Of a stretch of 64,000 nucleotides of DNA, positions 1-18,600 are shown one piece after another. This stretch comes from a bacterium (GTDB lineage Bacteria > RBG-13-61-14 > DATKZS01). The notes under the pieces are model-generated. The model was not told the origin of the DNA and made no database searches. It was given only the letters and a program-made list of their open reading frames with translations. Each line of letters opens with the position of its first letter. The first letter of the stretch is position 1. Made by a program: the position numbers and the translations under genes. The DNA is taken from NCBI GenBank assembly GCA_963674965.2, contig CAXXFL010000006.1, positions 736,001 to 800,000 on the forward strand. The letters run 5' to 3'.

Positions 1-650
1 GTGTCCACAAATATATAAGTCGCGCCCTCGGACACGGCCACCTCGATGGCGTAAACCGAGCCCGACCCATTATCGAAGCGCACCGTGTACGTCCCCGCGT
101 CCAGCGCCCCCGCCACGGCCAGCTTGAGGGTGTCGCCCTCCTCGAGCTCGTCCGCCCAGGTGTCGCCGTCCCCGAGGGTCAGCTCGCCGATGGCGCTCTC
201 GGCCAGGAGCCTAAGCCGCGCCGCGTCCAGCTCGGGCGTCGCCGAGTCTCCCTCCCCCGGCCCGCAAAGCTGGGTCGCTCCGTCCATGACGGAGGTCACG
301 CCGTCGCACAGCCCGTCGCCGTCGGTGTCCGGATTGAATGGGTTGGTATAGAAATACCCCGAGTTCAGGTACTCCTCGAGGTTGGTCCTCCCGTCCCCGT
401 CGGGGTCCTCGGCCGCGTCGCCCACCAGCGGGTCCAGCCCGGCCACGACCTCCCAATAATCGTCGATCCCGTCCCCATCCGAGTCGGCCAACAGCGGGTT
501 GGTCCCCAGCCTCGCCTCGATAATGGCCGCCATCCCGTCCCCGTCATAATCCGCCACCGCCGTATCGCACTCCACCACCACCGGATCGAACCCCAAGCTA
601 TCCGCGTACTCCACCTCCCACCCGTCCGTGAAGCCGTCAAAGTCGGAATC
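1..650 (-). pseudogene. Orphan Rhs cassette 5: homology arm only; the toxin tip lies beyond the window start
   Basis: Near-identical to the 3' part of the 3255-aa gene, starting at the same [15 protein letters not shown] codons as cassettes 2-4. Confidence 0.85.
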
Positions 651-670
651 GGCGGAAGTAATAATGACAA

Positions 671-683
671 GTTTTCAAAGAGC
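671..683 (-). promoter_or_regulatory. boxA-like motif GCTCTTTGAAAAC upstream of cassette 5
   Basis: Same motif as before the other cassettes, 20 nt upstream of the homology arm; resembles the Nus-factor boxA consensus. Confidence 0.6.
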
Positions 684-736
684 GGAGTTACATCTATATC
701 GACAACTAAAGTGTACAATGCCCGTCTTCGGGTTGC

Positions 737-1303
737 CTATTCACAGCCGATAACACTGGCCCTGTATTTATCAAGATATTTAACGTTTGCTTTCTCTAAA
801 GCATCTTCAAGACATTCTATTCCATTTTTTATTTTATAGTCCACTTCATCTTTTGTAATTGGAATTAACCAATAAAAAGAAACGGCATCATTGTTATTCT
901 TTAATATTTCAAAGCCTGGACCGTCAAGATAAGGCAATGAAATAAGGCCATATTCACAATTGGAATCAGGCAACCATCCTCTTCCAAAATTAACGGTATG
1001 CCATAGACCAAGACTACTATCAGTTGCGTGAAAATGTACTACTACGGTTAATAGCTCTACGAGGCCTTCATTTCTTTCTGGTGAGTGTATATGTAATTCG
1101 ATCTTTTCCCGATCTTGAAGTGTTGACATTCCACATGTTGCATATGTCCACATATCCCTTTTTATGGTTGGCCTAAACTCAAGGACGCTAAAAAATTGGG
1201 GCAGTTCATGAATTGGCCCTTTATTCCATTTTTTTATTGCTGCCGCATTATTCCAGTTGGTTTCGTAATGCTCTCTAATCAATTCTGTATTATGATATAT
1301 CAT
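737..1303 (-). CDS. Suppressor-of-fused (SuFu) family immunity protein, cognate to the cassette 4 toxin
   Basis: WTYATCGMS...IELHI...[10 protein letters not shown]...[11 protein letters not shown] motifs are typical of SuFu domains. Its start overlaps the toxin stop (ATGA) and it is AT-rich. Confidence 0.85.
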
Positions 1304-3060
1304 AGTCCATGCTCTTCTTTCTTTTTCTTTGAATAATTGCTCATTTTGCCACCCTGTATATTAGAATCCTTCCTCTTTTGTGTTTGCATCCTTCCTCTGT
1401 CGTTGGCACTTTCTTTCCTCTCAGATTCATTCATCTGATAGCCAGGCTTTTCATCATTCGATAGGTCGCCTTCATAATATCTTTGCACTAAGGGCGGGTC
1501 GTGGTCAACAACTTCATCTGGCTCGGCCCCTAATTCTCTTCTATCACTCTGCTTAGGAGTATTTCCATAATGCTTTCGCCTGTTATATGCCTCAGTTGGC
1601 CCGTCACTTTCGTCAGTTTTTTCATCTACGCCTGGGCTTGGTTCAGGTGAAGGAGACTCGTAATTCGGGTCCACTGGCTCTGAAGGCGGAGCTATATCCT
1701 GGCTAGATTCACCAGCCGCATAAAGTTCAATGAGCAATTCAGCGGCGCCCACCAACGCGGATGAAACGCCAACCCCATAACCAAGCTGATAGCAAGCCCT
1801 CGTGGGGTCGCCTTCTTCTGGCATGTAATAAGTATAATACGCCAGATGTGCATTTTCCGTGGAACGCAATCTGCCGCCTGAAGCTTCATTAACGGCGTCC
1901 GCAGGGACCAGAAACAAAGCATGCGAATACGCGCCTAAACATTCACTATAACCTAAGGCGGCCTCCGCGACTTCTCCTTCCATTCCTGACGCGTCTTGGT
2001 ACACGAACGGGTTGTTATAAGCGTAGGCGTACTGGTTGATGCCCCCGGCAACCGGATCGACGCTGACGAACCTCCCCAAATCCGGGTCGTACCAGCGGGC
2101 GCCGAGTTGATAGAGGCCGACGTCATTGTCGGAGCGGCGACCGACGAAGCCGTGGGTGATGGAGGAGTTGGTTATGGTGAGGGGGTGGGAGGGCGAGCCG
2201 GCGAAGTCGGAGCCGAAGGGGAGGTAGGCGCGGCGCCAGACGGTCTCGCCGTCGGAGTTGGTGGCGACCACCGGGGAGTGGAGACCGTAGTGGAGGTAGA
2301 GCCGCTGGGAGATATTGACCGAGGCGGCGCCCGAGTCGAGGAGGCTCGAGCCCGAGTCGTCCACCACGTCAATGTCGAAATTTCCCGAGGCGTCGTCCCC
2401 GAGGTCTCCCGTGTCCACAAATATATATGTCGCGCCCTCGGACACGTACGCCTCGATGGCGTAAACCGAGCCCGACCCATTATCGAACCGAACCGTGTAC
2501 GTCCCCGCGTCCAGCGCCCCCGCCACGGACAGCTTAAGAGTGTCGCCCTCCTCGAGCTCGTCGGACCAGGTGTCGCCGTCGCCGAGGGTCAGCTCGCCGA
2601 TGGCGCTCTCGGCCAGGAGCCGGAGCCGCGCCGCGTCCAGCTCGGGCGTCGCCGAGTCTCCCTCCCCCGGCCCGCAGAGCACGGTCTCACCGCTCATGAC
2701 TGAGGTCACGCCGTCGCACAGCCCGTCGCCGTCGGTATCGGGATTCAGGGGATTGGTGTAGAAGTAGCCCGAGTTCAGGTATTCCTCGAGGTTGGTCCTC
2801 CCGTCGCCGTCGGGGTCCTCCAAGGAGTCTCCCACCAGCGGGTCCAGCCCGGCGATGACCTCCCAATAATCGTCGATCCCGTCCCCATCCGAGTCGGCCA
2901 ACAGCGGGTCCGTCCCCAGCCTCGCCTCGATAATGGCCGCCATCCCGTCCCCGTCATAATCCGCCACCGCCTCATCGCACTCCACCACCACCGGATCGAA
3001 CCCCAGGCTATCCGCGTACTCCACCTCCCACCCGTCCGTGAAGCCGTCAAAGTCGGAATC
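1300..3060 (-). pseudogene. Orphan Rhs cassette 4: arm, Rhs core and a putative HNH-like nuclease tip
   Basis: [17 protein letters not shown]...[11 protein letters not shown] core followed by a unique tip ([15 protein letters not shown]...SNIQGG). No convincing start; the ORF-track GTG is an internal Val codon of the main gene. Confidence 0.8.
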
Positions 3061-3080
3061 GGCGGAAGTAATAGAGGTTA

Positions 3081-3093
3081 GTTTTCAAAGAAC
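3081..3093 (-). promoter_or_regulatory. boxA-like motif GTTCTTTGAAAAC upstream of cassette 4
   Basis: Conserved motif 20 nt upstream of the arm. Confidence 0.6.
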
Positions 3094-3131
3094 GGAATTA
3101 CATGCTACGTGTATTGCAAGATACTCCTAAC

Positions 3132-3755
3132 CTACGAAACATTTATAAATATTATATTAGTATATTTTCTAGCTTCGATATATTCTTTAACTTTTTCGGT
3201 ACAAAATATCCATCCAGGAAACTGCGCTATTCTGAATATATCATATGTTGTTGAGTAATTATGATCCAAAACCAAACCGCTTCTCTTTGGGATATAATAA
3301 CGATAACCACAGGTAGAACATGTCTTTTCTAATTTTACATTCGATTTGGCTTCATCCAAAGGAAACCAGGAGTCAACCCACAATTCGCTTAATGTAGGAC
3401 CTTCGTAAGGCAGATATATCCTTTTTTGGGTTCCTTCTCTTGTAGCCTTTGGCATCTTAAGGCGATTGTCTTGGAACATTTTAATTTCTTTAATATCAAA
3501 GCCGCTAAAATGCTTTTTAAGTTCAAGCGCAACGAATTGTTTGGACACCAACTCGAAGCTAATTCCACTCCAAATAAAGTCGCCTATTAAATCCGAACCC
3601 GGTTCCCATTCTATTATTAAAGGAGGTACTCTTATTTGACTCGATCTTGTACATTCAGGACATAGACCTTCACTTTTACTTGGCGTCCAAGTACCTCGTA
3701 TTCCAAATTGCGCATAATTATAGTCTCTTGGAGATAGCATCTGATAAAAAGACAT
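3132..3755 (-). CDS. Immunity protein with two CxxC motifs (double-CXXCG/Imm11-like), cognate to cassette 3
   Basis: CPEC and CSTCG motifs; C-terminal DIFRI...IFCTEKVKE..E....TNIIF. Lies immediately downstream of the toxin with an RBS (GAGGTG) and resembles 9933-10598. Confidence 0.75.
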   Translation of the reverse strand: MSFYQMLSPRDYNYAQFGIRGTWTPSKSEGLCPECTRSSQIRVPPLIIEWEPGSDLIGDFIWSGISFELVSKQFVALELKKHFSGFDIKEIKMFQDNRLKMPKATREGTQKRIYLPYEGPTLSELWVDSWFPLDEAKSNVKLEKTCSTCGYRYYIPKRSGLVLDHNYSTTYDIFRIAQFPGWIFCTEKVKEYIEARKYTNIIFINVS

Positions 3756-3767
3756 TTTTTCACCTCA

Positions 3768-5552
3768 CTAATCATCAACGTATTGTATTCCTAATTCCTT
3801 GTTCACTTCTTCTCTAATCCTTAATACATCATCCGCAGTAGGTGTGCGTCCTAGGTCTTCAATTTTTTGTTTTGTTAATTCATTTACAAGACCACCACCT
3901 TTGCCTTTATGTATTCGATTATGCTCATCAATATCAATCTTCCTTCTATTGGGAAAACCTGGTTTTCCTCTTACGTTAGGATTGTTAGCAACGTCAGACG
4001 GTAAATGCTTATCCAATACCTCTTTCGGGGTCTGGTGATGCATATGCGTGCCTTTTGACACACCTTTACTCGCGTCGAGAATCTCATCAGCCGCGTCCAC
4101 CGCGTTAAAGAGCTTTTTATTATTCCTCGACATTATATAATAAAACATGGCGCAATCGTCCAATGGTATTGGAGTCGATTCCGCCGTGGCCATGCCATGA
4201 GCCGCGATATCGTCCATGGGCAAGCCTATTTTTTCACCCGCAGCGTCAACGGCCATTCCCGGCCCAGTTATTGGTATGGTTGCTACTTGGAAAGAAGTGT
4301 CAGTGCCTTGTCTAAATTCTTCCATTCCTTTATCGGATATTGGATCGGCCCCTAATAATTCACCTCCGGCATCAACGCCCTCAATTGTTCCCCTTGCGAT
4401 TATAACCGACAACCCTCCTACGGCGCCAGCGATGACAAAGCCCTGAACCACTGGGCCAATCCAGACCGGGATATTGCCATCCGCGTCCTGGAAAACGAAA
4501 GGGTTGTTATGGCTATATGCGTACTGATTAAGAAGTCCCGGAACGGGGTCTCTACTCACGAACCTCCCCAGGTCCGGGTCGTACCAGCGGGCGCCGAGTT
4601 GGTAGAGGCCGACGTCATTGTCGGAGCGGCGGCCTACGAAGCCGTGGGTGATGGAGGAGTTGGTTATGGTGAGGGGGTGGGAGGGCGAGCCGGCGAAGTC
4701 GGAGCCGAAGGGGAGGTAGGCGCGGCGCCAGACGGTCTCGCCGTCGGAGTTGGTGGCGACCACCGGGGAGTGGAGACCGTAGTGGAGGTAGAGCCGCTGG
4801 GAGATATTGACCGAGGCGGCGCCCGAGTCGAGGAGGCTCGAGCCCGAGTCGTCCACCACGTCAATGTCGAAATTTCCCGAGGCGTCGTCCCCGAGGTCTC
4901 CCGTGTCTATAAAAATATAAGTCGCGCCCTCGGACACGGCCACCTCGATGGCGTAAACCGAGCCCGACCCATTATCGAAGCGCACCGTGTACGTCCCCGC
5001 GTCCAGCGCCTTCGCCACGGACAGCTTGAGAGTGTCGCCCTCCTCGAGCTCGTCGGACCAGGTGTCGCCGTCGCCGAGGGTCAGCTCGCCGATGGCGCTC
5101 TCGGCCAGGAGCCGTAGCCGCGCCGCGTCCAGCTCGGGCGTCGCCGAGTCGCCCTCCCCCGGCCCGCAAAGCTGGGTCGCTCCGTCCATGACGGAGGTCA
5201 CGCCGTCGCACAGCCCGTCGCCGTCGGTGTCCGGATTGAATGGGTTGGTATAGAAATACCCCGAGTTCAGGTACTCCTCGAGGTTGGTCCTCCCGTCCCC
5301 GTCGGGGTCCTCGGCCGCGTCGCCCACCAGCGGGTCCAGCCCGGCCACGACCTCCCAATAATCGTCGATCCCGTCCCCATCCGAGTCGGCCAACAGCGGG
5401 TTGGTCCCCAGCCTCGCCTCGATAATGGCCGCCATCCCGTCCCCGTCGAAATCCGCCACCGCCGTATCGCACTCCACCACCACCGGATCGAACCCAAGGC
5501 TATCCGCGTACTCCACCTCCCACCCGTCCGTGAAGCCGTCAAAGTCGGAATC
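3768..5552 (-). pseudogene. Orphan Rhs cassette 3: arm, Rhs core, hydrophobic segment and His-rich nuclease-like tip (DUF2380-like)
   Basis: Rhs core ending NNPFVFQDADG; the tip has HMHHQTP...EHNRIHKGKGGGLVN. Confidence 0.8.
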
Positions 5553-5572
5553 GGCGGAAGTAATAATGACAA

Positions 5573-5585
5573 GTTTTCAAAGAAC
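5573..5585 (-). promoter_or_regulatory. boxA-like motif GTTCTTTGAAAAC upstream of cassette 3
   Basis: Conserved motif 20 nt upstream of the arm. Confidence 0.6.
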
Positions 5586-5786
5586 GTAGTTACATCATTA
5601 TCGACAACCTAAGCAGAGGTCATCCTTTGGAAACGATTCTCTATGACCTGCTCGCTATGCTCGCCCACATAGCGGAGCTATGTGTAAACATGAAAGCGGG
5701 CTGTCCTCCAAGACGGTTTGAGGTATAACCGTAAACCAAGGGGTTGCAATGCAGGGCCCCAAATAAATGAAGGGAGGTACAGCCCA

Positions 5787-6872
5787 ATGACAACTTATCT
5801 CGGATTGGACGTGCATTCAAGGAGGACGGTGTTCGTGGCCCAGGAGGAGGACGGAAAAATAATCGCCCGGGGGGACGTGGCTACCGACCGCGCCGGCTTC
5901 GAGGAACTTCTCGGCCGGCTCGGAGGCGAGCTCGGGATCAAGACCGGCCTGGAGAGCGGGGCCCAGTCCTTTTGGGTCAGCGAGCAACTCTCCGAGCTGG
6001 GGTTTCACCCTTACGTGATCAACGCCGCCGAAGTGCGGGCCAAGTCGCTCCGCCCCAACCAGAAGAGCGACGGCCGCGACGCCCTCGAGATTTGCGACGG
6101 TCTGCGCCGCGATCTTTACGTCAGCCGCGTCTACGTGCCCGGCCGGTCCGTTCGCCGCCTGCGGTCCCTGCTCGGCCGCCGCCGTTTTTTCATCCGCCAA
6201 ATGACGTCCCAGGTCAACTCGGCCAAGGCCCTTTTGCGGGGCGAGGGAGTTCGAGTGTCTTTCCGCCTGAACACCGCCTCAGGCTGGAAGCGGGCGCTGG
6301 AGTCCTGCCCGGACTCCTTCCAGCGCGACCTTTTGCGGATGCACTTTCGGACCTGGCGTCAGGTCTCGGAGGAAGTCGCTCGCTTGAACAAGAAAATCGA
6401 AAAGGAGGCGGGCGCCCATTTCGCCGATGCTTATCCCCTGCTCCAGACCGTCCCCGGCGTGGGTCCGGTGACGGCGGCGACCTTTCTTTCCGTTATCGCC
6501 GACGCCGGGCGGTTCGAGCGGAGCGGCCAGGCGGTAAGCTACCTTGGACTCTGTCCGTCCAGTTGGGACAGCGGCGACCGGGTGGTCCACGGCCGTATCA
6601 CCAAGCGCGGGTCCTCGGAGGCCCGCTCGATGCTGGTGGAGGCGGCCCATCACGCGGGCCGTCCCACTCACCCCCTCAACCCGTATTTCGCCCGGGTGGC
6701 GGCGAGGCAGGGTTACAAGAAGGCGGTGGTCTGCGTGGCCCAGCGGCTTTGCCGCGTCATGTGGAGAATGATGTTGGACGGCGAGGAATTCGACGCGGGC
6801 AAGCTCAACGTGACGCCCACGAGCAAGGTCAAGACGAGGAAGTATTACTGGAAGATCAAGGAGGCCGTTTGA
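5787..6872 (+). CDS. IS110-family DEDD recombinase/transposase
   Basis: YLGLDVH, LESG, KSDGRDA (RuvC-like DEDD), LQTVPGVGPVTA, YLGLCPSSWDSG, GRITKRGS. RBS GGGAGG precedes ATG 5787. Confidence 0.95.
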   Translation: MTTYLGLDVHSRRTVFVAQEEDGKIIARGDVATDRAGFEELLGRLGGELGIKTGLESGAQSFWVSEQLSELGFHPYVINAAEVRAKSLRPNQKSDGRDALEICDGLRRDLYVSRVYVPGRSVRRLRSLLGRRRFFIRQMTSQVNSAKALLRGEGVRVSFRLNTASGWKRALESCPDSFQRDLLRMHFRTWRQVSEEVARLNKKIEKEAGAHFADAYPLLQTVPGVGPVTAATFLSVIADAGRFERSGQAVSYLGLCPSSWDSGDRVVHGRITKRGSSEARSMLVEAAHHAGRPTHPLNPYFARVAARQGYKKAVVCVAQRLCRVMWRMMLDGEEFDAGKLNVTPTSKVKTRKYYWKIKEAV

Positions 6873-7255
6873 CTCGTTGAGGTCGCGTCCGTGACTTGGC
6901 CGGCTTGAGGGCGGGCCAGGAGGCGCGAGAATCCGTGTCACTCCAAAATAGTTTTCGGCGACTCCTTGGTAACCCGTGGCCGCGAAGGCCTTCTATGTGT
7001 ATGGAGCAACGCCGGGACACCGAACGTATTCGTGAGGCTTACGACCTCTTGACCTCGAATAGATGGTTGGAGGGAGGCACGGACCGGGGGGCGCTTTTTC
7101 ATCTTTCCGTCATGGGATTGACCCGAAACAATCCCGCCCTCCGTCCCTCGCCCGCTCGGTCCTCCGGTCATGATTCTTTCGGGTAAAGGAGGGTAGACGG
7201 AAAGAAGAAAAAGCTTTGGCAACTGGAGGATGAGACCGTCCAGGGTTGACAATTT
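6873..7255 (+). ncRNA. Putative bridge/seek RNA region of the IS1111-type element; boundaries approximate
   Basis: Contains GGTAACCC (6968-6975) and TTCTATGTG (6991-6999), which match the two halves of the insertion target and flank a GGCC-GCGAA-GGCC hairpin closed by CTCC/GGAG. Confidence 0.7.
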
Positions 7256-7294
7256 GCTTTCATAGATGGGTTACCTGTTGTTATGAGTAACACG

Positions 7295-7909
7295 TCACTT
7301 GTTACTTTTCATTATTTTATCTATATATATTTCTGCGGTTATACCAGATGGTTTCCCTTTAGTTCCAAAGCGCAATTCTTCAATAATCTGTTCCAACTTT
7401 TCAGTTGGGCCAATTTCATTTAGCAGAACCATTAGGTGCATCAATCTTTGAAACTTCGTTAAGCCTGGAGATCTACCCGAAATCCATAGATCTCTTAATG
7501 CGCTGTTACTGGAATATTTTTGCAGCTCTGGAATAATATAATGCCCAGTGCTTGTAAGAATTTCCTCATCGAGACCGGCAAGGTTTGAATTGTCATTGAT
7601 TGTCCACCATGTATCCTTAGGCTGGGGCAATATATGTCCTATACGTTGACGAAAGTGACAATCTTCAATCTTTGGACGTTTAATTGGTTCATTATAAAAT
7701 TGAAAGAGTATTTGTGATGATATCCCAATATTAATCGTAAATATGACTTCATGCTTAGTACTTTTTGTGCTTTTTTGAAAGTTAATGAGTCTCCATATAT
7801 CATCTTTAAAAAGCAAGTAAGTATTGCCATAACGTTTATAACCATGTGCCGATAATAATGGCTTGATCTGCCCCCTCACTAATCTGTTAAATTCAGATGA
7901 AGCTTCCAT
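7295..7909 (-). CDS. DUF4304-like protein, probable immunity protein associated with cassette 2
   Basis: IKPLLSAHGYKRYGNTY...INFQKS...FTINIGI pattern; AT-rich; RBS AAGGAG; downstream of the cassette 2 toxin. Confidence 0.7.
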   Translation of the reverse strand: MEASSEFNRLVRGQIKPLLSAHGYKRYGNTYLLFKDDIWRLINFQKSTKSTKHEVIFTINIGISSQILFQFYNEPIKRPKIEDCHFRQRIGHILPQPKDTWWTINDNSNLAGLDEEILTSTGHYIIPELQKYSSNSALRDLWISGRSPGLTKFQRLMHLMVLLNEIGPTEKLEQIIEELRFGTKGKPSGITAEIYIDKIMKSNK

Positions 7910-8137
7910 TTTGATAAATCTCCTTAATAAGGGTCTATACCTACAATTTATTGACCATTCCTTGCTTTGAATACCACGTCGATTATTTACTTATTATAAG
8001 ATATCGGAAAAATCTTATCGAAAGCTTTGTCATTTTATTCAGGTAACTATTTAAAATTAATGCCGACTAGTAATGATTGCCTCGCAATAACTATTACGCA
8101 AATATTATATTCAATATTATTGAAATTTCGTAACACT

Positions 8138-9871
8138 CTAATTGTCCCGCACGATATTGACAATATATTCTTTAAAAATATCAAGCCATTTATCTTTTGC
8201 TCTCTGCGAAGGTTTATAAGGTGAATTTCCCGTTTTAGTCTCAATTCCACCCAGTACCTCACCGTCTTTGCTGACCTCAATGTCTATACGACGTTTTCCA
8301 AACCAAGTTTTTTTCGTCACCTCTTTTTCGACTTCATACCCATTTTTCTCAATTAATTCAGCTATCTCGTCACGAAAAGCGTCTCCTTTTGCTTTATTTT
8401 TTGATAATTGAGAAGCTTTAGATGATCTCCCCGCATTTGCGGCTGCCATTTCCTCACCGGCGACAGCTTTGGCCCCAAGGCCCATAGCCCCTAGTTCAGC
8501 TATACTGCCAAAAAGCTGAATGTCGTTTTTACACGCGAAGCTCCCGCCGATTCCATAAGCCCAATACTCAGCTGACCCTTGTTCTGATGCCTCGGCCATG
8601 GCCCACCAATCCTCATGGGCGGTACCGGTGAAAAAGTCATGAGTATCTTCCCATGCCAAGATTTCCGACTCCGTGCCCTCTATGTAATACATTGCGGTAT
8701 CAAGTCCCGGCACCTTTACAACCTCATTGATTTTTATCCATGGGCTGAGGGCTTGTTTGACGACTCCGGTGGTAAATTGTTCGAAAAACAAACCGGAAGC
8801 ATCATGATAAACGAACGGATTGTTATTGGCGTAAGAGTACTGGTTCAGAAGGCCAGACACCGGGTCTGTGCTCACGAACCTCCCCAGGTCCGGGTCGTAC
8901 CACCTTGCTCCCAACTGGTAGAGGCCGACGTCGTTGTCTTGTCGGCGGCCGACGAAGCCGTGGGTGATGGAGGAGTTGGCGATGGTGAGGGGGTGGGAGG
9001 GCGAGCCGGCGAAGTCGGCGCCGAAGGGGAGGTAGGCGCGGCGCCAGACGGTCTCGCCGTCGGAGTTGGTGGCGACCACCGGGGAGTGGAGCCCGTAGTG
9101 GAGGTAGAGGCGCTGGGAGATATTGACCGAGGCGGCGCCCGAGTCGAGGAGGCTCGAGCCCGAGTCGTCAACCACGTCAATGTCGTATGAGCCGGAGCCG
9201 GCGTCGTCCCCGAGGTCTCCCGTGTCTATAAATATATAAGTCGCGCCCTCGGACACGGCCACCTCGATGGCGTAAACCGAGCCCGACCCATTATCGAACC
9301 GAACCGTGTACGTCCCCGCGTCCAGCGCCCCCGCCACGGACAGCTTGAGAGTGTCGCCCTCCTCGAGCTCGTCGGACCAGGTGTCGCCGTCGCCGAGGGT
9401 CAACTCGCCGATGGCGCTCTCGGCCAGGAGCCGAAGCCGCGCCGCGTCCAGCTCGGGCGTCGCCGAGTCGCCCTCCCCCGGCCCGCAGAGCACGGTCTCG
9501 CCGCTCATGGCGGAGGTCACGCCGTCGCACAGCCCGTCGCCGTCGGTATCGGGATTCAGGGGATTGGTGTAGAAGTAGCCCGAGTTCTGGTATTCCTCGA
9601 GATTGGTCCTGCCGTCCCCGTCGGGGTCCTCCAAGGAGTCTCCCACCAGCGGGTCCAGCCCGGCGATGACCTCCCAATAATCGTCGATCCCGTCCCCATC
9701 CGAGTCGGCCAACAGCGGGTTGGTCCCCAGCCTCGCCTCGATAATGGCCGCCATCCCGTCGCCGTCATAATCCGCCACCGCCTCATTGCAATTTACCACC
9801 TCCGGGTCGAAGCCAAGGGTGTTGGAGTACTCGACCTCCCACCCGTCCGTGAAGCCGTCAAAGTCGGAATC
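8138..9871 (-). pseudogene. Orphan Rhs cassette 2: arm, Rhs core and PD-(D/E)xK restriction-endonuclease-fold toxin tip
   Basis: Core ending [11 protein letters not shown]; tip [11 protein letters not shown]...RRIDIEV...IETKTG...SQRAKD. Confidence 0.8.
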
Positions 9872-9891
9872 GATGGAAAGAACAGAGGCAA

Positions 9892-9904
9892 GTTTTCAAA
9901 GATC
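9892..9904 (-). promoter_or_regulatory. boxA-like motif GATCTTTGAAAAC upstream of cassette 2
   Basis: Motif conserved although the flanking sequence differs; 20 nt upstream of the arm. Confidence 0.6.
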
Positions 9905-9932
9905 AAATGATCGCGAGCTTTTAATCTAAGGC

Positions 9933-10598
9933 CTACAAATATTTAATCCCTTTATGTCCTATCGCGCTTCCTTCCTCAACGGGTGTGAAACGAAAGTTGG
10001 TTAGCTTGTACTTTTTCGCGCAATCTATAAGAGCATCCGTACAAAAGAACTTAAGATACGATAAATTGGTAGTGAAAAGGTTTTTACCGTCCCAACTGTC
10101 AGGCTTGAATATATAAGGGCATATTTTTGAGTGCTGCAATGTATATGTTTTAGTAATATCGTACAACAATCGTCCACAGCTTTCACAATAGCGAGCATCA
10201 AGAAATCCACTGGCGAGTAAGTCAAGCTCGGCGCCACAGAGTTTTTCTCCATCCACCCAATAGTACTTTGGAGGCTTTGTCCCCTCAAGCTTTTTTGGAT
10301 AAGGCTTTTGGAGTTTAACCCTGTGAAGGGGGATTTCTCCAATGTTTTCTTTCGACCATGCTGCGACGACTTTTTCTGAGATAATTAATAACATTTGGCT
10401 TCCGCAACCTAAAACATCAGCCCACTTGGTACCCTTATCCGGCTCAAAAATAACGGAGATATCACCTGAAGGATAGAATCTCCGGCCTCCGCATTTTTCG
10501 CAGGGGGGCAACATGGTAATTCCTTTCGTTATTTCCGATATCCAGGGGAAGCCTCTTGTATCAAAGGAGTTATCTGAAATGGAGTAAAATTTAATCAT
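9933..10598 (-). CDS. Immunity protein with two CxxCG motifs, cognate to cassette 1
   Basis: CEKCG and CESCG motifs; C-terminal WDGKNLF...FFCTD....CAKKYKLTNFRF; directly downstream of the toxin stop. Confidence 0.75.
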   Translation of the reverse strand: MIKFYSISDNSFDTRGFPWISEITKGITMLPPCEKCGGRRFYPSGDISVIFEPDKGTKWADVLGCGSQMLLIISEKVVAAWSKENIGEIPLHRVKLQKPYPKKLEGTKPPKYYWVDGEKLCGAELDLLASGFLDARYCESCGRLLYDITKTYTLQHSKICPYIFKPDSWDGKNLFTTNLSYLKFFCTDALIDCAKKYKLTNFRFTPVEEGSAIGHKGIKYL

Positions 10599-10606
10599 AA
10601 CGGTGC

Positions 10607-11933
10607 CTACTGAAAATTTGGATTATTTCTTAAATTATGCATGAAATTTAATACTTCTTTATCAGAAGCTGTTGGGTTACTATCGAAGAATTTTCTCCAT
10701 TCTTTGTTAAAGTCTCTGCTCCATTTTAGATGGTTATTATCTCCTTCTACCCATCGGCCATATTGCGCCTCGTTTATATCATTAATGCCTAATTTATTAA
10801 ATCTATCTTCAAATTCCACCGGCAAGTCATGGTGGGCATGTGGCTTTTTTAAATGTGAGGGCGGGTCACCTAAGTTTTTACGTAGAATTTTTCTTGCCTT
10901 TGTCCCCCTGGCCTTGTTTGCGGCTCTTGCCGCCTTCGCCGCCTTGCTTGTTTTACTAGCCGCGCCACTTAATGCTTTCCCTGATTTGCCAATGCTCTTC
11001 GGGCCGCCGGTCGCGCTGAGCGCAATGTTGGCCGCTAACTCCGAGCCGATTAACGCTTGCTCGTCAGGATCGCTTGCCAGGAAGGCATTATACTGGTTTA
11101 CTGCCCCGTAGTACAACACCTCGGGCTCATCAAGATATAAATAAGCCCCATAACCAATAGTCTCACCCGTGCCATACAGGGTATCGACTGGATGCCGGGC
11201 CATGGTATAGACGCCTTCACCCGTCGAGTAAAACGTCCTTAGCACTCCATGAGCTCCGGCGCTGATACAAGCGGTGGTCTCATTCGAGTTTACCGCGTCC
11301 GCGTACGTCCAAAGAGCGCCGTATATTCCGCTCACGAACTCCGACTCCCGGCCGTCTCCGTCATAATATCGGAATGGATTATTGTTCGCGTAGGCGTACT
11401 GGTTGATGCCCCCGGCAACTGGATCGACGCTGACGAACCTTCCCAGGTCGGGGTCGTACCAGCGGGCGCCGAGTTGGTAGAGGCCGACGTCGTTGTCGGA
11501 GCGGCGGCCTACGAAGCCGTGGGTGATGGAGGAGTTGGCGATGGTGAGGGGGTGGGAGGGCGAGCCGGCGAAGTCGGCGCCGAAGGGGAGGTAGGCGCGG
11601 CGCCAGACGGTCTCGCCGTCGGAGTTGGTGGCGACCACCGGGGAGTGGAGACCATAGTGGAGGTAGAGGCGCTGGGAGATATTGACCGAGGCGGCGCCCG
11701 AGTCGAGGAGGCTCGAGCCCGAGTCGTCAACCACGTCAATGTCGTATGAGCCGGAGCCGGCGTCGTCCCCGAGGTCGCCCGTGTCCACAAAAATATAAGT
11801 CGCGCCCTCGGACACGGCCACCTCGATGGCGTAAACCGCGCCCGACCCATTATCGAAGCGCACCGTGTACGTCCCCGCGTCCAGCGCCCCCGCAACGGCC
11901 AGCTTGAGAGTGTCGCCCTCCTCGAGCTCGTCA
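10607..11933 (-). pseudogene. Orphan Rhs cassette 1 (shortened arm): Rhs core and His-rich nuclease-like tip (DUF2380-like)
   Basis: Homology to the main gene starts only at DELEEGDT. Core ends NNPFRYYDGDG; tip HAHHDLP...YGRWV...HLKWSRDFNKEWRKFF. Confidence 0.8.
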
Positions 11934-12051
11934 TCTTGGGTGGCCCACTCTTTCGGAACGAATGAGTGGGTGAGCGGAGCGGACGGGCTTAGCGCCTCGA
12001 GGCATGTTGAAGCTTTCGGCTCCAACTACATGCAGCTAAATCTCAAATTGA

Positions 12052-12064
12052 ATTTTCAAAGAAC
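12052..12064 (-). promoter_or_regulatory. boxA-like motif GTTCTTTGAAAAT upstream of cassette 1
   Basis: Fifth occurrence of the motif, in otherwise unrelated intergenic sequence. Confidence 0.55.
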
Positions 12065-12155: not shown

Positions 12156-12593
12156 TCACATTGTTTCATCATCAATTATCGTGAAAACATCCTTTGCTTT
12201 TCCATCTGGGCAACCATATATGTAACACCATGATATATCATTATCAGAATACTCTTCATCATCTCCATCAATAACTTCAGGGTATTCAAAAGCGACACAA
12301 ATAGTGTATATATCATTGTTTTTTGGAGAAATTACCGGGATTAATTCACCTTCGTTATCATAAGAGATTGCATCGGGGTACTGATCTGTATCGTAAAGGA
12401 CAATTTCTTGATTGCATTTATTACATGAAGCGACCACTAATGGTCGGTTATTCTTTTTAACGGAAAAATAATTATTCTTGCAGATACATTTGACTTGATA
12501 AGCAACAAAGTACTCATTTGTCGGTACAGGAAGTATTGAAGCAAAACAACCTATTGGTGTAACGAAGCCCTTTAAATGATCTGGACATCTCAT
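12156..12593 (-). CDS. Putative cognate immunity protein of the full-length toxin (CxC and CxxC motifs, acidic C-terminus)
   Basis: Small AT-rich ORF with RBS AAGGA directly after the toxin gene. Confidence 0.7.
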   Translation of the reverse strand: MRCPDHLKGFVTPIGCFASILPVPTNEYFVAYQVKCICKNNYFSVKKNNRPLVVASCNKCNQEIVLYDTDQYPDAISYDNEGELIPVISPKNNDIYTICVAFEYPEVIDGDDEEYSDNDISWCYIYGCPDGKAKDVFTIIDDETM

Positions 12594-12615: not shown

Positions 12616-15600
12616 TTAATATTCTAACATCAATGAGTTTATTGCGTTTGGATCCGCTTCATTCATTCTTTTCCAATTTTGTAATTCTCTATTCAATTCA
12701 CTTACATTGTCAAGTTTATAATTAGAGATATAGTTGGTATTATAACGATTTCCTTCCAATGTGTATGCAGCATCGGGATGAACCCTCTTGCCATTAAGTG
12801 CATTCACTTTATTTCCGGCGGCATCAAATTGACGCTTGTTTTTATTAATGTTCGTAGCTCCTTTCGATTCTGCCCAGTTTAATTCATTTTCGATCGCATT
12901 ATTATGTTTTACGTTGCCAGGACCATGTTCTTTGCCCCATTTTGTGCCACTTACAGAGGATTTATCCGCCGCTTTTACCGCGTCATCGCCAACTTCCTCC
13001 GCGGCCTCCAATACGGCCTTGCCCGCGCCCTCGGCCGCGTCGTCGGCCGACCCTTTTAATAATCCTTTTACTCCGTTTATTGATCCCTTGACTCCATTAT
13101 AAAACCCTCGAGGGTTTTTTGCGATCTTATAGCCGGTGGCGGTAAAACTTAAGCCGGCGCAAACGTCCCCTGGGATATTGACGACGTCCCAAGCATCTCG
13201 TATTCCATTGTAAGCGTCATCAGCCGCTGCTTCAGAAGGAATCGCTCCAACTCCATCCAGACCTCCTACTATAGCGAGAGGAACTCCAACTCCAATACCG
13301 CCGGCGGCGTAAATTATCAAAGCCGCCATTGCCATAGGATCGCGACCATCGCCGTCCTGATAGACGAATGGATTATTATTCGCGTATGCGTATTGATTGA
13401 GATCCTGGAAAACCGGATCGGTGCTCACGAACCGCCCCAGGTCCGGGTCGTACCAGCGGGCGCCGAGTTGGTAGAGGCCGACGTCGTTGTCGGAGCGGCG
13501 GCCGACGAAGCCGTGGGTGATGGAGGAGTTGGCGATGGTGAGGGGGTGGGAGGGCGAGCCGGAGAAGTCGGCGCCGAAGGGGAGATAGGCGCGGCGCCAG
13601 ACGGTCTCGCCGTCGGAGTTGGTGGCGACCACCGGGGAGTGGAGCCCGTAATGGAGGTAGAGCCGCTGGGAGATATTGACCGAGGCGGCGCCCGAGTCGA
13701 GGAGGCTCGAGCCCGAGTCGTCAACCACGTCAATGTCGTATGAGCCGGAGCCGGCGTCGTCCCCGAGGTCGCCCGTGTCTATAAAAATATAAGTCGCGCC
13801 CTCGGACACGGCCACCTCGATGGCGTAAACCGCGCCCGACCCATTATCGAACCGCACCGTGTACGTCCCCGCGTCCAGCGCCCCCGCCACGGACAGCTTG
13901 AGAGTGTCGCCCTCCTCGAGCTCGTCGGACCAGGTATCGCCGTCGCCGAGGGTCAGCTCGCCGATGGCGCTCTCGGCCAGGAGCCGTAGCCGCGCCGCGT
14001 CCAGCTCGGGCGTCGCCGAGTCGCCCTCCCCCGGCCCGCAAAGCTGGGTCGCTCCGTCCATGACGGAGGTCACGCCGTCGCACAGCCCGTCGCCGTCGGT
14101 GTCCGGATTGAATGGGTTGGTATAGAAATACCCCGAGTTCAGGTATTCCTCGAGATTGGTCCTCCCGTCCCCGTCGGGGTCATCGGCCGCGTCGTCCACC
14201 AGCGGGTCCAGCCCGGCGATGACCTCCCAATAATCGTCGATCCCGTCCCCATCCGAGTCGGCCAACAGCGGGTTGGTCCCCAGCCTCGCCTCGATAATGG
14301 CCGCCATCCCGTCCCCGTCATAATCCGCCACCGCCGTATCGCACTCCACCACCACCGGATCGAACCCAAGGCTATCCGCGTACTCCACCTCCCACCCGTC
14401 CGTGAAGCCGTCAAAGTCGGAATCAATGGAGACGGGGTTGGCTTGGGATTGGCAGTAGGCATAATTCAACGGTTCGCTAACAGTAACGTCTGGATCGCAC
14501 TCATCAACGTTCACGATACCGTCAGAATCCGTATCGACCGTTCCTCCATCAGCGTCGGATATTGGGTTAAGGCCGTGTTCATACTCCCACTTGTCAGGCA
14601 TGTCGTCCAAGTCGCTGTCGCCCGTATATGGGCAGGAATCCAGAACGTAATATTCCATGCCGTCGGGGAGACCGTCGTCGTCGCTGTCAGATAAGGTTGG
14701 AATTACAATAATGCCCTCATACATTTGAGCGTCAACTTCTTCCGAATCGAGCATGTAATCCTCATCAGTGTCGGGATTGTATGGAGACGAGAGAAAAACA
14801 ATTATTTCAGTTTGATTGGAAATTCCGTCGCCATCGGGGTCATCGTTATTGTCCACCACCAATGGATCAGTCCCGTATTCCACCTCAATTCCGTCTCGTA
14901 AGCCATCGCCGTCAGTGTCGGGATTTTCCAGTCCATTTGGAATAGTGCCCATCTGATATTCAGTAAGGTTCCATAAGCCGTCGCCATCGGCGTCGGAGTC
15001 CCAGTCCGTGGAGTCGTCCGGGTCAAAACTATATTGGACCTCCCACCAGTCAGGCATGCCGTCCATGTCGGAGTCGACCATGTCTGGCCTTGTGTTATAT
15101 ATATCGTGTTCGTCAATATTGCATAACCCGTCCTGGTCGAGGTCCGGACAACCGGCGCCGCCGGCGCCGTCGGCGGCATTATTGGGGTCGAGTCCGAATA
15201 ATGCCTCGTAGTCGTCATCCATGCCGTCGCCGTCGGTGTCGGCCAAGCTCAGTGAGGACCCCGCGTACATTTCCTCGATTACCATGAGGGTGGAGCCGAA
15301 TAATTCGCCCACGTCCAATTTCGAGTAGAACACGTAATAATTATCCGACGGGTCCTTTTCCACCCAGGCCACGTGCAGGTATTCCTTGTCGGGGCTGGGC
15401 TTGATCCTGGCCAGGACGGCGTCGTTAGCGGGGTTGGATATAAGTATGGGAGGTCTCCAGTGGGTCGAGTTGGTAGGCGCGTCCTTATAATAATCGTTCC
15501 TTACCATTTCGTTCGAGTAAAGGATTACCGATTTGGTCTGGCCCGAGCCCACGGGCGTCTCGACCACGGACTTCCATACCGCGTGTTTCCTCTCCCCGCT

Positions 15601-18600
15601 GGTTTCGGCCACGAAGGCCGCGGGTTTTTCCGGCTGCTTGATAAAATCCGGGAAGTGGGAGACGTCCTGAGGATAGGGCTTACCCCCCTCATAAACGTAT
15701 TCTATCCAGTCGCGATAAATAACGTCGTATTTAACGGTGTCCCCGGCCTGGAGGCCGCCGGTGAAGAAGATGCCGTCTTGATAGTTGTATACTTTATAGG
15801 GACTCAAGTCGGCGACGCTGGAGTCGATATGGTCGTCGTCCCACCAATAAGTATAGAGATTTCCATCCCCATTGGAGGACCACACGCTCCAATCACGGGA
15901 GCCGGTTGCAAAGGCGACGCCGGGCGGATAAGTGTCTTTTTTGTCGATATTATTTGCAAGATAATTGTATTCGGACCAATTAATAAATGGAGGGCTGGAT
16001 CCATTATGATATCCCATTTGTTGGATGACCGACATTTTATCGGAATCGTTTTTCTTTGCGGCTAAAAGATATGCCTGGTTATATCCAGGTATTATCTGTA
16101 TCGCCAGGGTTGGAGAGAATAGATCGTAATGGGACCAGCAATACTTATACCTCCAAGCCGGGTATCCTCCGGAAGGACCCCATTCACATACATTAACTCT
16201 TTTTTGTGAGGTAGAATCGTTAATATATGGGAAGGCGAGAAAATATTGGCCAATAGTGTGGTCGTAAAATACGCTTAAAAAATCATCATCCGACAATAGC
16301 CAATCGCCGATTGTAGATTCGGTCTCAGGGGCGTAATACGTTGCGCCATCTGTAATAAACAGCGATTTTAACCATCGGCTTGAACCGCTTTCATAGGAGT
16401 AGAAAAGCACTAAAGTGCTGCCGTCATATCCGGGCGCGATATCCGCTAGAAACGCCCCTTCCACCGTTCTATGTACGGTTTCACTAACCGCAGCCATTGG
16501 CCAAGACAGCCCGGCGGCGTCGTAGTAATCGTCGCCGGAGTTGGTGGGGTCGTGGCCGATATTCAGTTCGATCCCGTCGGGGTCTCCTCCGCCGTCGGTG
16601 TCGAAGTTGACGGGGCTGGTGGGGGTGTTTCCGTACAGTTCCTGGTAGTCGGACAGTCCGTCGTGGTCGGTGTCGGCCAGGGTGGGGTTGAGATCGCACT
16701 CGTCGGCGTCGCCGATGCACACGTTGACGTAGGGGTGGTAGGCGGTGTCGCCGTCGAAGGAGGTATCGCCGTCAAAGGAGATTTCCTGGAGGTCGGTAAG
16801 GCCGTCGCCGTCGGTGTCGGTTGAGCCCGGGTTCGTGCCGAACCTGAACTCCCAGATATTGGAGATGGAGTCCGAGTCGGGGTCGGCGGTCAGGTCATCG
16901 TCCACCGTGGGATGGAGGTACTTGAGTTCCCAGTAGTCGCCGAGGGAGTCGCCGTCGGAGTCGCTCGAGAGGGGATCGAGGGCGTCGTCGTCGCAGCTAT
17001 TGCCGCACTTGTGGTAGGGCTCGAGGAACATGGCGCAGCATTCCTCGATGTTGGTCACTCCGTCGTGGTCGGGGTCGGCCTCGGCGTCGTTGGTGAGCGG
17101 GTCGAGGGTGTCTCCGGCGTCGACCTCCCACTTGTCGTCCATGCCGTCGTGGTCCGTGTCCTTGTGGTAGGGGTTGGTCCCGGCCAGGTACTCGCCGAGA
17201 TTGTCAAGCCCGTCGGAATCGTAGTCCGAGGCCGCGTCATCGGTCAGCGGGTAAGAGTTCCAGATAAGCTCCCATCCGTCGGGCAAGCCGTCTCCGTCGG
17301 TGTCGGCCAGGCAGGGGCTGGTCTCGGTGTCGCCGTCCAGGGCCCCGTCCTGGTCGAAGTCCTCGAGGCCGTCGGGCACGCCGTCGCCGTCCGAGTCCTG
17401 ATTAGTGGGCGACGTGGTGCATCCCACTCCGACGGTATACCCGTATAGCGCCTGGGTTTCGAGATAATCGCTTAGTCCGTCGATATCGGAGTCCGCGCTC
17501 CTGGGGTTGGTGAGCAGCGAGTATTCCTGGAGGTTGGTGAGGGTGTCCCCGTCCAGGTCGGCGGCCGAGTCGTCCGTCAGGGGATCGAGGCCGTAGAGGA
17601 TTTCCCAGTCGTCGTCCATGCCGTCGGAGTCGGTGTCGTCGAGTCCGGGATGGGTATGGTGGAGGTACTCGGAGCGGTCGGTCAACTCGTCGTTGTCCGC
17701 GCAAAAGGAGCAGGTGTTGGCCTCGAGCGGGTCCAGGTTATGCTCGACCTCCCACCCATCGGGCAGTCCGTCGCCGTCGGTGTCCATGTCGTAGGGGTCG
17801 GTCTCGCCCGAGTCCACCACGTAATCGTTGTCCTTGTCCTCGCCGGCGGAGTCTCCATTAACCAGCCCGTCGCCGTCCATGTCATCGAACACGTATATGG
17901 GAGGTATGCCATATTCCACCAATTCCAACTCGTCGTATATGCCGTTGTCGTTCCTGTCGGTGTAGCCGTTGGGATCGGTCATATAGAAGTACTCGAGATC
18001 GTCGGTTAAGTCATCGCCGTCGGTGTCGGCGTTTCTCGGGTTTGACCCGAAGAGCAGTTCCTCGTAGTCGTCCAGCCCGTCGCCGTCGGTGTCGGCCAGG
18101 CACGGGTTGGTCTCGATATTCTGCCTGATTCCGTCCTGGTTTTTATCCTCGACCCCGTCGGGAATGCCGTCGTCGTCCGTGTCGGGGTCCATGGGATCGA
18201 GGCACAGGCTAATCACGGCCTCGAAATAGTCGGGGACATTATCGCCGTCCGTGTCGCGCTTGATGGGATTGCAGACGTAGGCGGTGACGGTCGAGCCGGT
18301 CATAAGTATCTCTTCACCGTCTTCCATGGTGTCGCCGTCCACGTCCGCGATAAGCGGGTTGAGATAGACGGTTATCGTGTCTCCCGGGCACCCGGCGGAA
18401 GCGTCGCATGAGGCCCCCTTGTAGAGCAGGAACTCCTGGAGGTTGGTGAGGCCGTCGGAGTCCCAGTCCGTGTCCCCGTCCTGGACATGGGGATTCAGGC
18501 CCCAGAAGACCTCCCACCCGTCGTCCATGCCGTCGCCGTCCGTGTCGGCTATACAGGGATTAGTCTCCGTATTGCCGTCAAGGACGCCGTCCAGGTCGAT

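Follow-up and report, generated by a model that had tools for sequence, protein, structure and literature searches.

The array and its cassettes

The 64-kb stretch of DNA analysed here (contig CAXXFL010000006.1; hereafter the window) belongs to genome G000 and carries on its minus strand a toxin gene that is followed by an array of orphan modules. Read in that direction, the order is a full-length gene for a 3255-aa toxin, an AT-rich immunity-type gene and five orphan units, in each of which a homology arm leads into a variable C-terminal domain, with an immunity gene behind it (Table 1). All five orphan arms have ahead of them a short sequence resembling boxA, the RNA element that recruits NusB/NusE and, together with NusA, NusG and SuhB, lets RNA polymerase resist Rho on untranslated RNA (PMC5725501, PMC13753749). 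Here we report the distribution of this sequence in the array, the genome and its relatives, compare it to the boxA elements of the host ribosomal RNA operon (rrn) and weigh what it may do. Coordinates without a contig prefix are window positions, G numbers other than G000 denote relatives, and L numbers denote extracted loci.

The arms, 587 to 1076 nt in length, are 92 to 95% identical to the main gene by BLAST. GC content is 0.65 to 0.67 in the arms, 0.45 to 0.48 in the toxin domains and 0.34 to 0.42 in the immunity genes. A Shine-Dalgarno-like sequence precedes three to four of the five immunity genes. Pfam named the immunity families Imm11, SUFU and DUF4304; its scan gave no family for the immunity gene of the main toxin, and none of the five toxin C-terminal domains reached the cut-off of a Pfam family. 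A core end of the form NNNPFxYxDxxG (PxxxxDPxGL-like) is common to 18 copies in the genome, which diverge beyond it. In the 3255-aa protein the Pfam scan recognized only TSP3_bac repeats and met no RHS/YD repeat shell; because the full-length protein is without RHS repeats in Pfam, we call the system Rhs-like by its core end only and, judging from sequence, not a canonical Rhs protein. Pfam places RHS_repeat in a separate open reading frame (ORF) of 1505 aa (23258-27775), which together with a 313-aa HEAT-repeat ORF lies directly upstream of the TSP3-repeat toxin gene (22407-27775, minus strand). The Rhs shell and the toxin bearing the core end may be divided between genes.

Distribution of the boxA-like sequence

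The motif GNTCTTTGAAAAY occurs five times in the window, always on the minus strand, against 0.05 occurrences expected, and none of 100 shuffled sequences (0/100) reached five. The five sites had been listed in the initial annotation, and all were recovered to the nucleotide. A fixed spacing of 20 nt, claimed there for four cassettes, does hold as a single register in those four, here termed type A: three arms start at 650, 3060 and 5552, each corresponding to main-gene nt 7960 by BLAST, with the motif ending 20 nt ahead, and in the fourth, starting at 9877, the homology is 6 nt longer, to main-gene nt 7954, in the same register. The fifth site (12052-12064) proved to be of a different class, type B, in which the arm begins at main-gene nt 8458 (11932), about 120 nt past the motif. 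The main gene has unrelated sequence and no motif at the position of the arm start, in agreement with the annotation. The latter had also described the TGA of the motif as an in-frame stop with no start codon before the arm, which is correct for cassettes 2 to 5 and incorrect for the type B cassette, where the nearest in-frame stop is a TAG. In cassettes 2 to 5 the TGA is followed by eight codons (K L V I I T S A or similar), with no ATG, GTG or TTG among them; a codon of this kind first appears as the GTG of WEVEY, and the distance from the motif to the first GTG of the type A open frames is 57 nt. At four of the five junctions the boxA lies 29 to 92 nt past the stop codon of the immunity gene.

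A BLAST search of G000 with the main gene detected three full-length paralogues (the window gene, C2:70251 to about 80000, and C6:882119-891244) and 20 orphan arms, 13 of type A from nt 7954/7960, beginning inside the last TSP3 repeats, and seven of type B from nt 8458. The strict motif occurs 26 times in the 6.5 Mb, where a rough hand estimate from base composition would expect about 0.6. These occurrences comprise one copy in the rrn leader, 13 at type A junctions, two at type B junctions, five in one insertion sequence ORF encoding QFFENG, four in one intergenic repeat and one in another context. The 10-nt core TCTTTGAAAA recovers all eight type B junctions, seven with arms and one (C5:413593) without, and precedes 20/20 orphan arms (13 type A, 7 type B). 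In a separate count over the 18 core ends, taking the span from 200 nt upstream of the open frame to the core end, 14/14 orphans have exactly one boxA-like site and 4/4 full-length genes have none. All 21 junction copies in G000 are oriented as their cassette. Types A and B have unrelated flanks on both sides and only the motif in common. Among the 13 type A copies, which amount to roughly eight or nine distinct variants, 11 consecutive columns (CTTTGAAAACT) are invariant, while the pyrimidine-rich spacer of 20 nt has about nine variable columns and the upstream sequence exists in four to five unrelated versions, some of them diverging 3 to 8 nt from the motif.

The only assembled rrn operon of G000 (C1, minus strand) has a TTGACA-17-TAAACT promoter, the hairpin CTCGCTCGAAAGAGCGGG and then TGCTCTTTGAAAACTAAATAGCAAG; its leader boxA, TGCTCTTTGAAAACT, lies about 100 nt before 16S. 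Comparison of the cassette motifs with this element, which the initial annotation had set as a check on its own proposal, gave 13/13 identity to cassette 5 and a difference of one base from the others (12/13 with cassettes 2 to 4). Variation is confined to the second position, which is Y in the gammaproteobacterial consensus GYTCTTTAANA (PMC5725501) and A in the consensus AUGAUCUUUGAAA bound by B. subtilis NusB (PMC13753749). Cassette 2 contains GATCTTTGAAA, which falls inside the B. subtilis consensus; from the gammaproteobacterial one the motif departs at a single base, with G instead of A at position 8. Eight related genomes carry G[CT]TCTTTGAAAACTA ahead of 16S, as in the leader. Three further boxA-like sites are found in the 16S-23S spacer of G000, the last of them being CGTTCTTTGACAATTG, just before 23S. 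The pre-23S boxA of G000 is GTTCTTTGACAAT, the same position in G004, with the same flank, reads GCTCTTTGACAAC, and the two fit G[CT]TCTTTGACAA[CT]; spacers are assembled only in G000 and G004, 23S and spacer being unassembled in G001, G002, G003 and G005-G010. In G007 the 16S-leader boxA is of the GAAAAC type and the cassette motif of the GACAAT type, and the cassette motif is therefore not a simple copy of the leader. The genome also encodes rho, which scores 702 bits against a curated cut-off of 509, and nusB, with 144 bits against 88.

A search of 40 relative genomes gave no close relative of the G000 arms. The core-end part was matched in three genomes of other genera (G003, G007 and G010), each with GTTCTTTGACAAT at the locus. 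In G007 one copy lies in frame in a long toxin ORF (KEFFDNW) and a second directly past an AT-rich immunity-type ORF, at the start of an orphan arm (TAG TTC TTT GAC AAT TGG); the G010 copy is in frame (KEFFDNQ) and that of G003 stands just before a 514-aa ORF. Before the in-frame motif of G007 (L038, C90, minus strand, about 5112-5130) there is also a 12-nt tandem partial duplicate, GAGTTCTTTAAA GAGTTCTTTGAC, giving KEFFKEFFDNW. Over the 13 genomes of the phylum that were searched GTTCTTTGACAAT has five sites, one in the G000 spacer and four in toxin loci (G003, G007 twice, G010), and a reversed-pattern control in the same genomes gave 0. Because its sites are those of the G000 spacer and of toxin loci only, this second rrn boxA variant marks cassette boundaries in other genera.

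A scan with the core-end alignment provided a metagenome set of 54 loci (295,506 nt) that encode relatives of the arm. In this set, where L101 and L117 repeat G007 sequence and L097 nearly repeats part of L094, the pattern [CT]TCTTTGA[AC]AA occurs 15 times on the toxin strand and twice on the other, with sites in 8/54 loci. A non-coding junction boxA, GGTTCTTTGAAAATTAGCAAGC, is found twice in L093 and also in L094 immediately past an AT-rich ORF, with an arm starting ..LAGGRRVASIYEK about 8 nt further on; in L120 its distance to the arm, which there starts ..SYTGQE, is about 15 nt. The in-frame copy of the metagenome loci lies about 70 nt before the core-end homology and encodes (F/L)F(D/E)(N/K); in L091, as in the G007 orphan, the arm begins at the in-frame copy with a stop codon just ahead. 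With types A and B of G000 counted in, arms begin at no fewer than five different points, a boxA accompanying every one of them, and the distance from motif to arm is 0, about 8, about 15, 20 or about 120 nt depending on the class, or the motif lies inside the arm. In 13 instances from relatives and metagenomes the preceding G and the codon pattern NTC TTT GAM AAN are fixed while the residues vary (F/L, D/E, N/K), and a neighbouring proline uses four codons. Since the wobble bases are fixed while the amino acids and the nearby proline codons vary, this points to a constraint on nucleotides.

The control set consisted of 73 Rhs loci from other phyla, chiefly Proteobacteria, with a total of 699,128 nt. 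The clade pattern was found there on the toxin strand 0 times and on the other strand twice, the gammaproteobacterial consensus twice on each strand, and the broad pattern 6 and 8 times, respectively. With orphan-like core ends set by a crude regular expression that admits some false hits, 0/76 orphan-like units of the control loci had a boxA-like site, versus 8/21 in the metagenome set. The boxA at cassettes is therefore lineage-specific and not a general Rhs property. The initial annotation had proposed a scan of orphan cassettes in other genomes; the motif is found at boundaries in relatives and metagenomes and at none of the orphan-like units in the Rhs loci of other phyla.

A sigma-70 consensus scan returned 15 promoter-like matches against 11.5 +/- 3.3 in shuffled sequences, and thus not above shuffles. 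It gave no consistent promoter or terminator at the junctions, and no minus-strand promoter-like site inside any arm, where weak or non-sigma-70 promoters could escape such a scan. The motif itself was considered as a promoter and rejected: it includes TTGACA in relatives and TTGAAA in G000, but no -10 hexamer is present at 16 to 18 nt in any class. Nor does it fit GTTRRRY, the consensus of an integron-like core site. A weak terminator-like hairpin, CGTGTCCGAGGGCGCG, with a T-rich tail is present in four of the five arms (orphans 1, 2, 3 and 5), inside coding sequence, and the total of such terminator-like sites is not above shuffles. Rfam searches gave only a chance miRNA match in window 1-23000 (E up to 1), and only 16S and a sub-threshold Acido-Lenti-1 in five other loci.

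Table 1. Features of the toxin array, in window coordinates and in the order of the minus strand
Feature	Position	Strand	Basis
Full-length toxin gene, 3255 aa, TSP3 repeats, Rhs-type core end, variable C-terminal domain	12616..22383	-	Pfam, translation
Immunity-type gene of main toxin, 145 aa, GC 0.34, AAAGGA Shine-Dalgarno-like	12156..12593	-	
Type B junction leader, ~220 nt, predicted hairpins before and after boxA, 8 copies in genome	11933..12155	-	
boxA-like GTTCTTTGAAAAT, cassette 1, type B, 92 nt past immunity stop, ~120 nt before arm	12052..12064	-	
Homology arm, orphan 1 (main-gene nt 8458-9044, 93% identity)	11346..11932	-	BLAST
Orphan 1 open frame, arm and variable toxin domain	10607..12025	-	
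Orphan immunity gene 1, 221 aa, weak Imm11 match under curated cut-off	9933..10598	-	
boxA-like GATCTTTGAAAAC, cassette 2, type A, 29 nt past immunity stop	9892..9904	-	
Homology arm, orphan 2 (main-gene nt 7954-9029, 92%)	8802..9877	-	BLAST
Orphan 2 open frame, C-terminal domain weakly restriction-endonuclease-like, under cut-off	8138..9799	-	
Orphan immunity gene 2, DUF4304, AAGGAG ahead of ATG	7295..7909	-	Pfam
IS110-family transposase interrupting array, opposite strand	5718..6872	+	Pfam
boxA-like GTTCTTTGAAAAC, cassette 3, type A	5573..5585	-	
Homology arm, orphan 3 (main-gene nt 7960-9038, 95%)	4477..5552	-	BLAST
Orphan 3 open frame	3768..5516	-	
Orphan immunity gene 3, Imm11	3132..3755	-	Pfam
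boxA-like GTTCTTTGAAAAC, cassette 4, type A, 39 nt past immunity stop	3081..3093	-	
Homology arm, orphan 4 (main-gene nt 7960-9031, 92%)	1992..3060	-	BLAST
Orphan 4 open frame	1300..3024	-	
Orphan immunity gene 4, SUFU-like, ATG overlaps toxin stop	737..1303	-	Pfam
boxA-like GCTCTTTGAAAAC, cassette 5, type A, 13/13 identical to the genome's rrn leader boxA	671..683	-	
Homology arm, orphan 5, continuing beyond window edge	1..650	-	BLAST
Terminator-like hairpin CGTGTCCGAGGGCGCG, four sites	11801-11816, 9242-9257, 4923-4938, 21-36	-	

Proposed antitermination and its alternatives

We consider it probable that the motif is a real NusB/NusE boxA which reloads an anti-Rho complex, so that polymerase reaches each next immunity gene. 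Transcription of the array would come from the full-length toxin operon and run along the minus strand, with ribosomes leaving the mRNA at the stop codon of each immunity gene. Because an in-frame stop and no convincing start follow the release of the ribosomes, the next 1.3 to 1.8 kb of arm and toxin domain would be left bare and exposed to Rho. Once transcribed, the boxA past the immunity stop would re-form the Nus antitermination complex (NusB with NusE, that is S10), and polymerase would arrive at the following immunity gene with its separate ribosome-binding site. The toxin fragments would in this way remain untranslated while every orphan immunity gene is reached. The sequence identity with two host rrn boxA variants, the association with orphans only, the recurrence at different boundaries and the conservation of nucleotides are the observations behind this reading. 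A candidate Rho-loading site, a 78-nt window with C above G by at least 0.15, is also present once in each of four arms examined. What the initial annotation had proposed was likewise boxA antitermination, and it has gained from the identity with the host rrn, from the presence of rho and nusB and from the scan in which no consistent junction promoter appeared; read-through itself we infer, as we do co-transcription, the susceptibility of the cassettes to Rho, the binding of Nus factors and the absence of translation.

Several considerations weigh against antitermination. Rho sensitivity is assumed, and the arms overall are not C-rich (C/G 0.93 to 1.24). The predicted unpaired probability of the motif (0.51 to 0.56) only modestly exceeds that of its flanks (0.34 to 0.42). 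The AT-rich toxin and immunity segments contain promoter-like matches, such as 12713-12684, which precedes the main immunity gene, and 8021-7993, which precedes immunity gene 2. Apparent full-length genes of G007, G010 and several metagenome loci carry the motif within their translated frame (KEFFDNW, RLFENQ), where an antiterminator is not obviously needed and ribosomes would be likely to interfere with Nus binding. A single boxA should in principle suffice for processive antitermination, and it is only by inference that we have it reloaded at each cassette. The 13 type A copies share one ancestor unit and may have been homogenised by gene conversion; because they descend from one unit, the independent evidence amounts to about five boundary classes, not 20 events. 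Rhs orphans of other phyla do without a boxA (0/76). Finally, boxA can also repress genes, for example suhB and that of a ParE-like toxin (PMC5725501).

Such repression is the basis of a different account, in which the boxA is equally real but the Nus complex blocks ribosomes and promotes Rho termination, thereby silencing the toxin fragments in the manner of suhB and lambda N. The suhB boxA represses translation, followed by Rho termination, and works up to 100 nt from the Shine-Dalgarno sequence (PMC5725501), and the type A motif is 57 nt ahead of the first GTG. The arms, however, are without a convincing Shine-Dalgarno sequence and start, and an in-frame stop is already found in or after the motif. 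Termination would furthermore shut off the downstream orphan immunity genes as well, yet these are intact and have ribosome-binding sites, and we regard this account as very unlikely. A separate transcription unit for each cassette, driven by a promoter in the AT-rich immunity gene or the junction, with the boxA in its 5' leader as in rrn and protecting a cassette-specific transcript instead of read-through from the main gene, seems still less probable. In the type B and long type A junctions one or two hairpins are indeed predicted 30 to 35 nt ahead of the boxA, an arrangement reminiscent of the rrn leader, and the Rhs orphans of Salmonella are expressed from internal promoters (PMC7043789). 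Against this, the junctions show no sigma-70-like match in a conserved position, the sequence ahead of the motif is reduced to a few bases in several junctions of type A, and the hairpins are nearly without covariation: in the type B leader, with five of the eight copies aligned, only 2/58 pairs covary, so that its hairpins stand as predictions.

The motif could also act at the level of DNA, as a boundary or recombination site by which the 5' end is set when cassettes arise or are exchanged, its likeness to boxA being incidental or due to a DNA-binding protein that uses the same sequence. This was the alternative of the initial annotation, and it is now weaker, though it retains the relatives' arms that start exactly at an in-frame motif: in G007 and L091 the orphan arm begins at the motif that is also in frame in the full-length gene, with a stop directly ahead. 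The constant spacing of motif and arm in type A and a partially palindromic motif (4 of 6 pairs, by eye) would also fit. The full-length genes of G000 are nevertheless without the motif, which therefore cannot be a site shared by donor and recipient, and its distance to the arm varies by class (0, about 8, about 15, 20 and about 120 nt). The sole recombinase-type gene seen beside the array is the IS110 transposase on the opposite strand, and the identity to two rrn boxA variants is left unexplained, so that a boundary site appears unlikely. A functionless passenger, either the relic of a coding segment (F/L)F(D/E)N in an ancestral arm or a stretch of rrn leader acquired by a cassette that neighboured the operon, and afterwards copied along with the junction, is just as doubtful. 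Relatives encode FFDN or LFEN at the motif, the protein alignment sets FFDN against RFDN inside the G000 arm, and immediately ahead of the only assembled rrn operon there are two cassette fragments, which share its strand. A passenger would hardly account for a motif that is invariant while its flanks vary at two unrelated junction types, for wobble positions that stay constant though amino acids change, for a strand bias of 15 versus 2, or for presence at 20/20 arms and 0/4 full-length genes in G000. None of these alternatives explains the identity with two rrn variants, the nucleotide constraint and the strand bias as well as antitermination does.

Antitermination may be taken one step further. 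It is possible, and we put it forward tentatively, that each module bears its own portable rrn-type boxA, making the array a Rho-proof multi-immunity operon, and that relatives write the signal into the toxin frame. The residues (F/L)F(D/E)N, written as G-YTC-TTT-GAM-AAY, would then constitute a dual protein and RNA code that shields the AT-rich end, and the dual-coded site would pre-set the cut-off point for viable new orphan cassettes. As a matter of speculation, the in-frame copies in relatives may protect the AT-rich variable end if translation lags, or may supply material for viable orphans.

Known systems and further observations

The likeness to rrn boxA extends from sequence to context. 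Cassette 5 equals the host 16S-leader boxA and the motif of the relatives equals the pre-23S boxA of G000 (the relatives' own spacers being unassembled), and the cassette motif lies on the transcribed strand, in probably untranslated RNA and often past a hairpin. It differs in being situated inside a protein-coding operon, once per module and before silent toxin fragments rather than structural RNA. Uses of boxA outside rrn are known from suhB and CRISPR operons (PMC5725501, PMC13753749), where in gammaproteobacteria it acts against Rho on long untranslated RNA (CRISPR) or regulates an mRNA (suhB). A single leader boxA serves there, whereas here one is found per cassette and moves with it, and the downstream immunity mRNAs would be what is protected. 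In Salmonella Typhimurium a full-length Rhs toxin is likewise followed by orphan toxin and immunity modules that share an arm up to the core motif, with orphan immunity genes that need expression; in contrast to the present array, in which we found a boxA and no such promoter, those orphans are driven by internal P2 promoters in the conserved core (PMC7043789).

RfaH with its ops element, and LoaP, provide processive antitermination of long or foreign operons. In both cases a short cis element in the transcript or DNA enables polymerase to pass terminators in gene clusters that are long, AT-rich or poorly translated, as proposed here, but the factor and the element are different ones, and our array seems to borrow the machinery of general rrn transcription and to repeat its signal. 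A literature search, which did not cover subscription journals, found no paper tying boxA or Nus factors to orphan cassettes of Rhs, contact-dependent inhibition (CDI) or other polymorphic-toxin systems; within that scope, an established signal is met here in a modular setting that is new.

Arrays of orphan toxin and immunity genes are common, and the question addressed is how immunity genes situated behind kilobases of untranslated toxin DNA stay on while the toxins stay silent. Salmonella is the one studied case, with internal promoters, and a reiterated boxA would be a second and mechanistically different solution. If our reading is true, it would be among the very few uses of boxA outside rRNA, after suhB and CRISPR arrays, mobile cassettes could bear their own anti-Rho signal, and a simple sequence marker of cassette boundaries would be available in a little-studied phylum. 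Should the dual-coded motif of full-length genes prove real, it would add to the rare instances in which protein-coding sequence doubles as a signal to RNA polymerase.

Some further observations concern individual junctions. In cassette 3 the IS110 element separates the immunity gene from the motif, and the sequence just upstream of this junction (window 5590-7294) recurs upstream of the junction at C2:90505 (C2 about 90,300-90,500). Because cassette 3 adjoins IS110 and its upstream sequence recurs there, a second IS110 copy at the equivalent junction position is suggested, and hence a possible site preference. Long type A junctions (for example C1:911,900-912,000 and C2:99,000-99,170) have tandem units of about 33 nt, GGTAACCCACAAAAGGGTCTTGAAATATAAGTAACA, ahead of them and are also preceded by a perfect 8-bp hairpin, CATATAGC TCC GCTATATG. 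The cassette fragments beside the rrn operon (L007, C1:910000-914500, minus strand) are two truncated type A cassette starts directly upstream of the rrn promoters and on the same strand, with junction boxAs at C1:911793 and C1:912302 and arm fragments of 953 and 205 nt; their position may be due to chance or may hint at the origin of the junction boxA.

The intergenic repeat that accounts for four strict motifs (C1:1078862, C3:165182, C5:227241 and C6:6704; L002, L003, L004 and L005) is about 150 nt long and ends ..AGTCAGGCCCCGGCGGCGCGACCCGCCnnGCTCTTTGAAAATCGAATACCGAGGG, a GC-rich hairpin followed by a boxA-like or U-rich tract. None of its four copies had an Rfam or tRNA match, and it could be a terminator-like repeat or another boxA-bearing element. 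In G004 (L209, C157, about 720-1290) two small ORFs lie inside the 16S-23S spacer, past two tRNAs and before the pre-23S boxA, and judged from their translation they look like an antitoxin-toxin pair of the HicB/HicA type.

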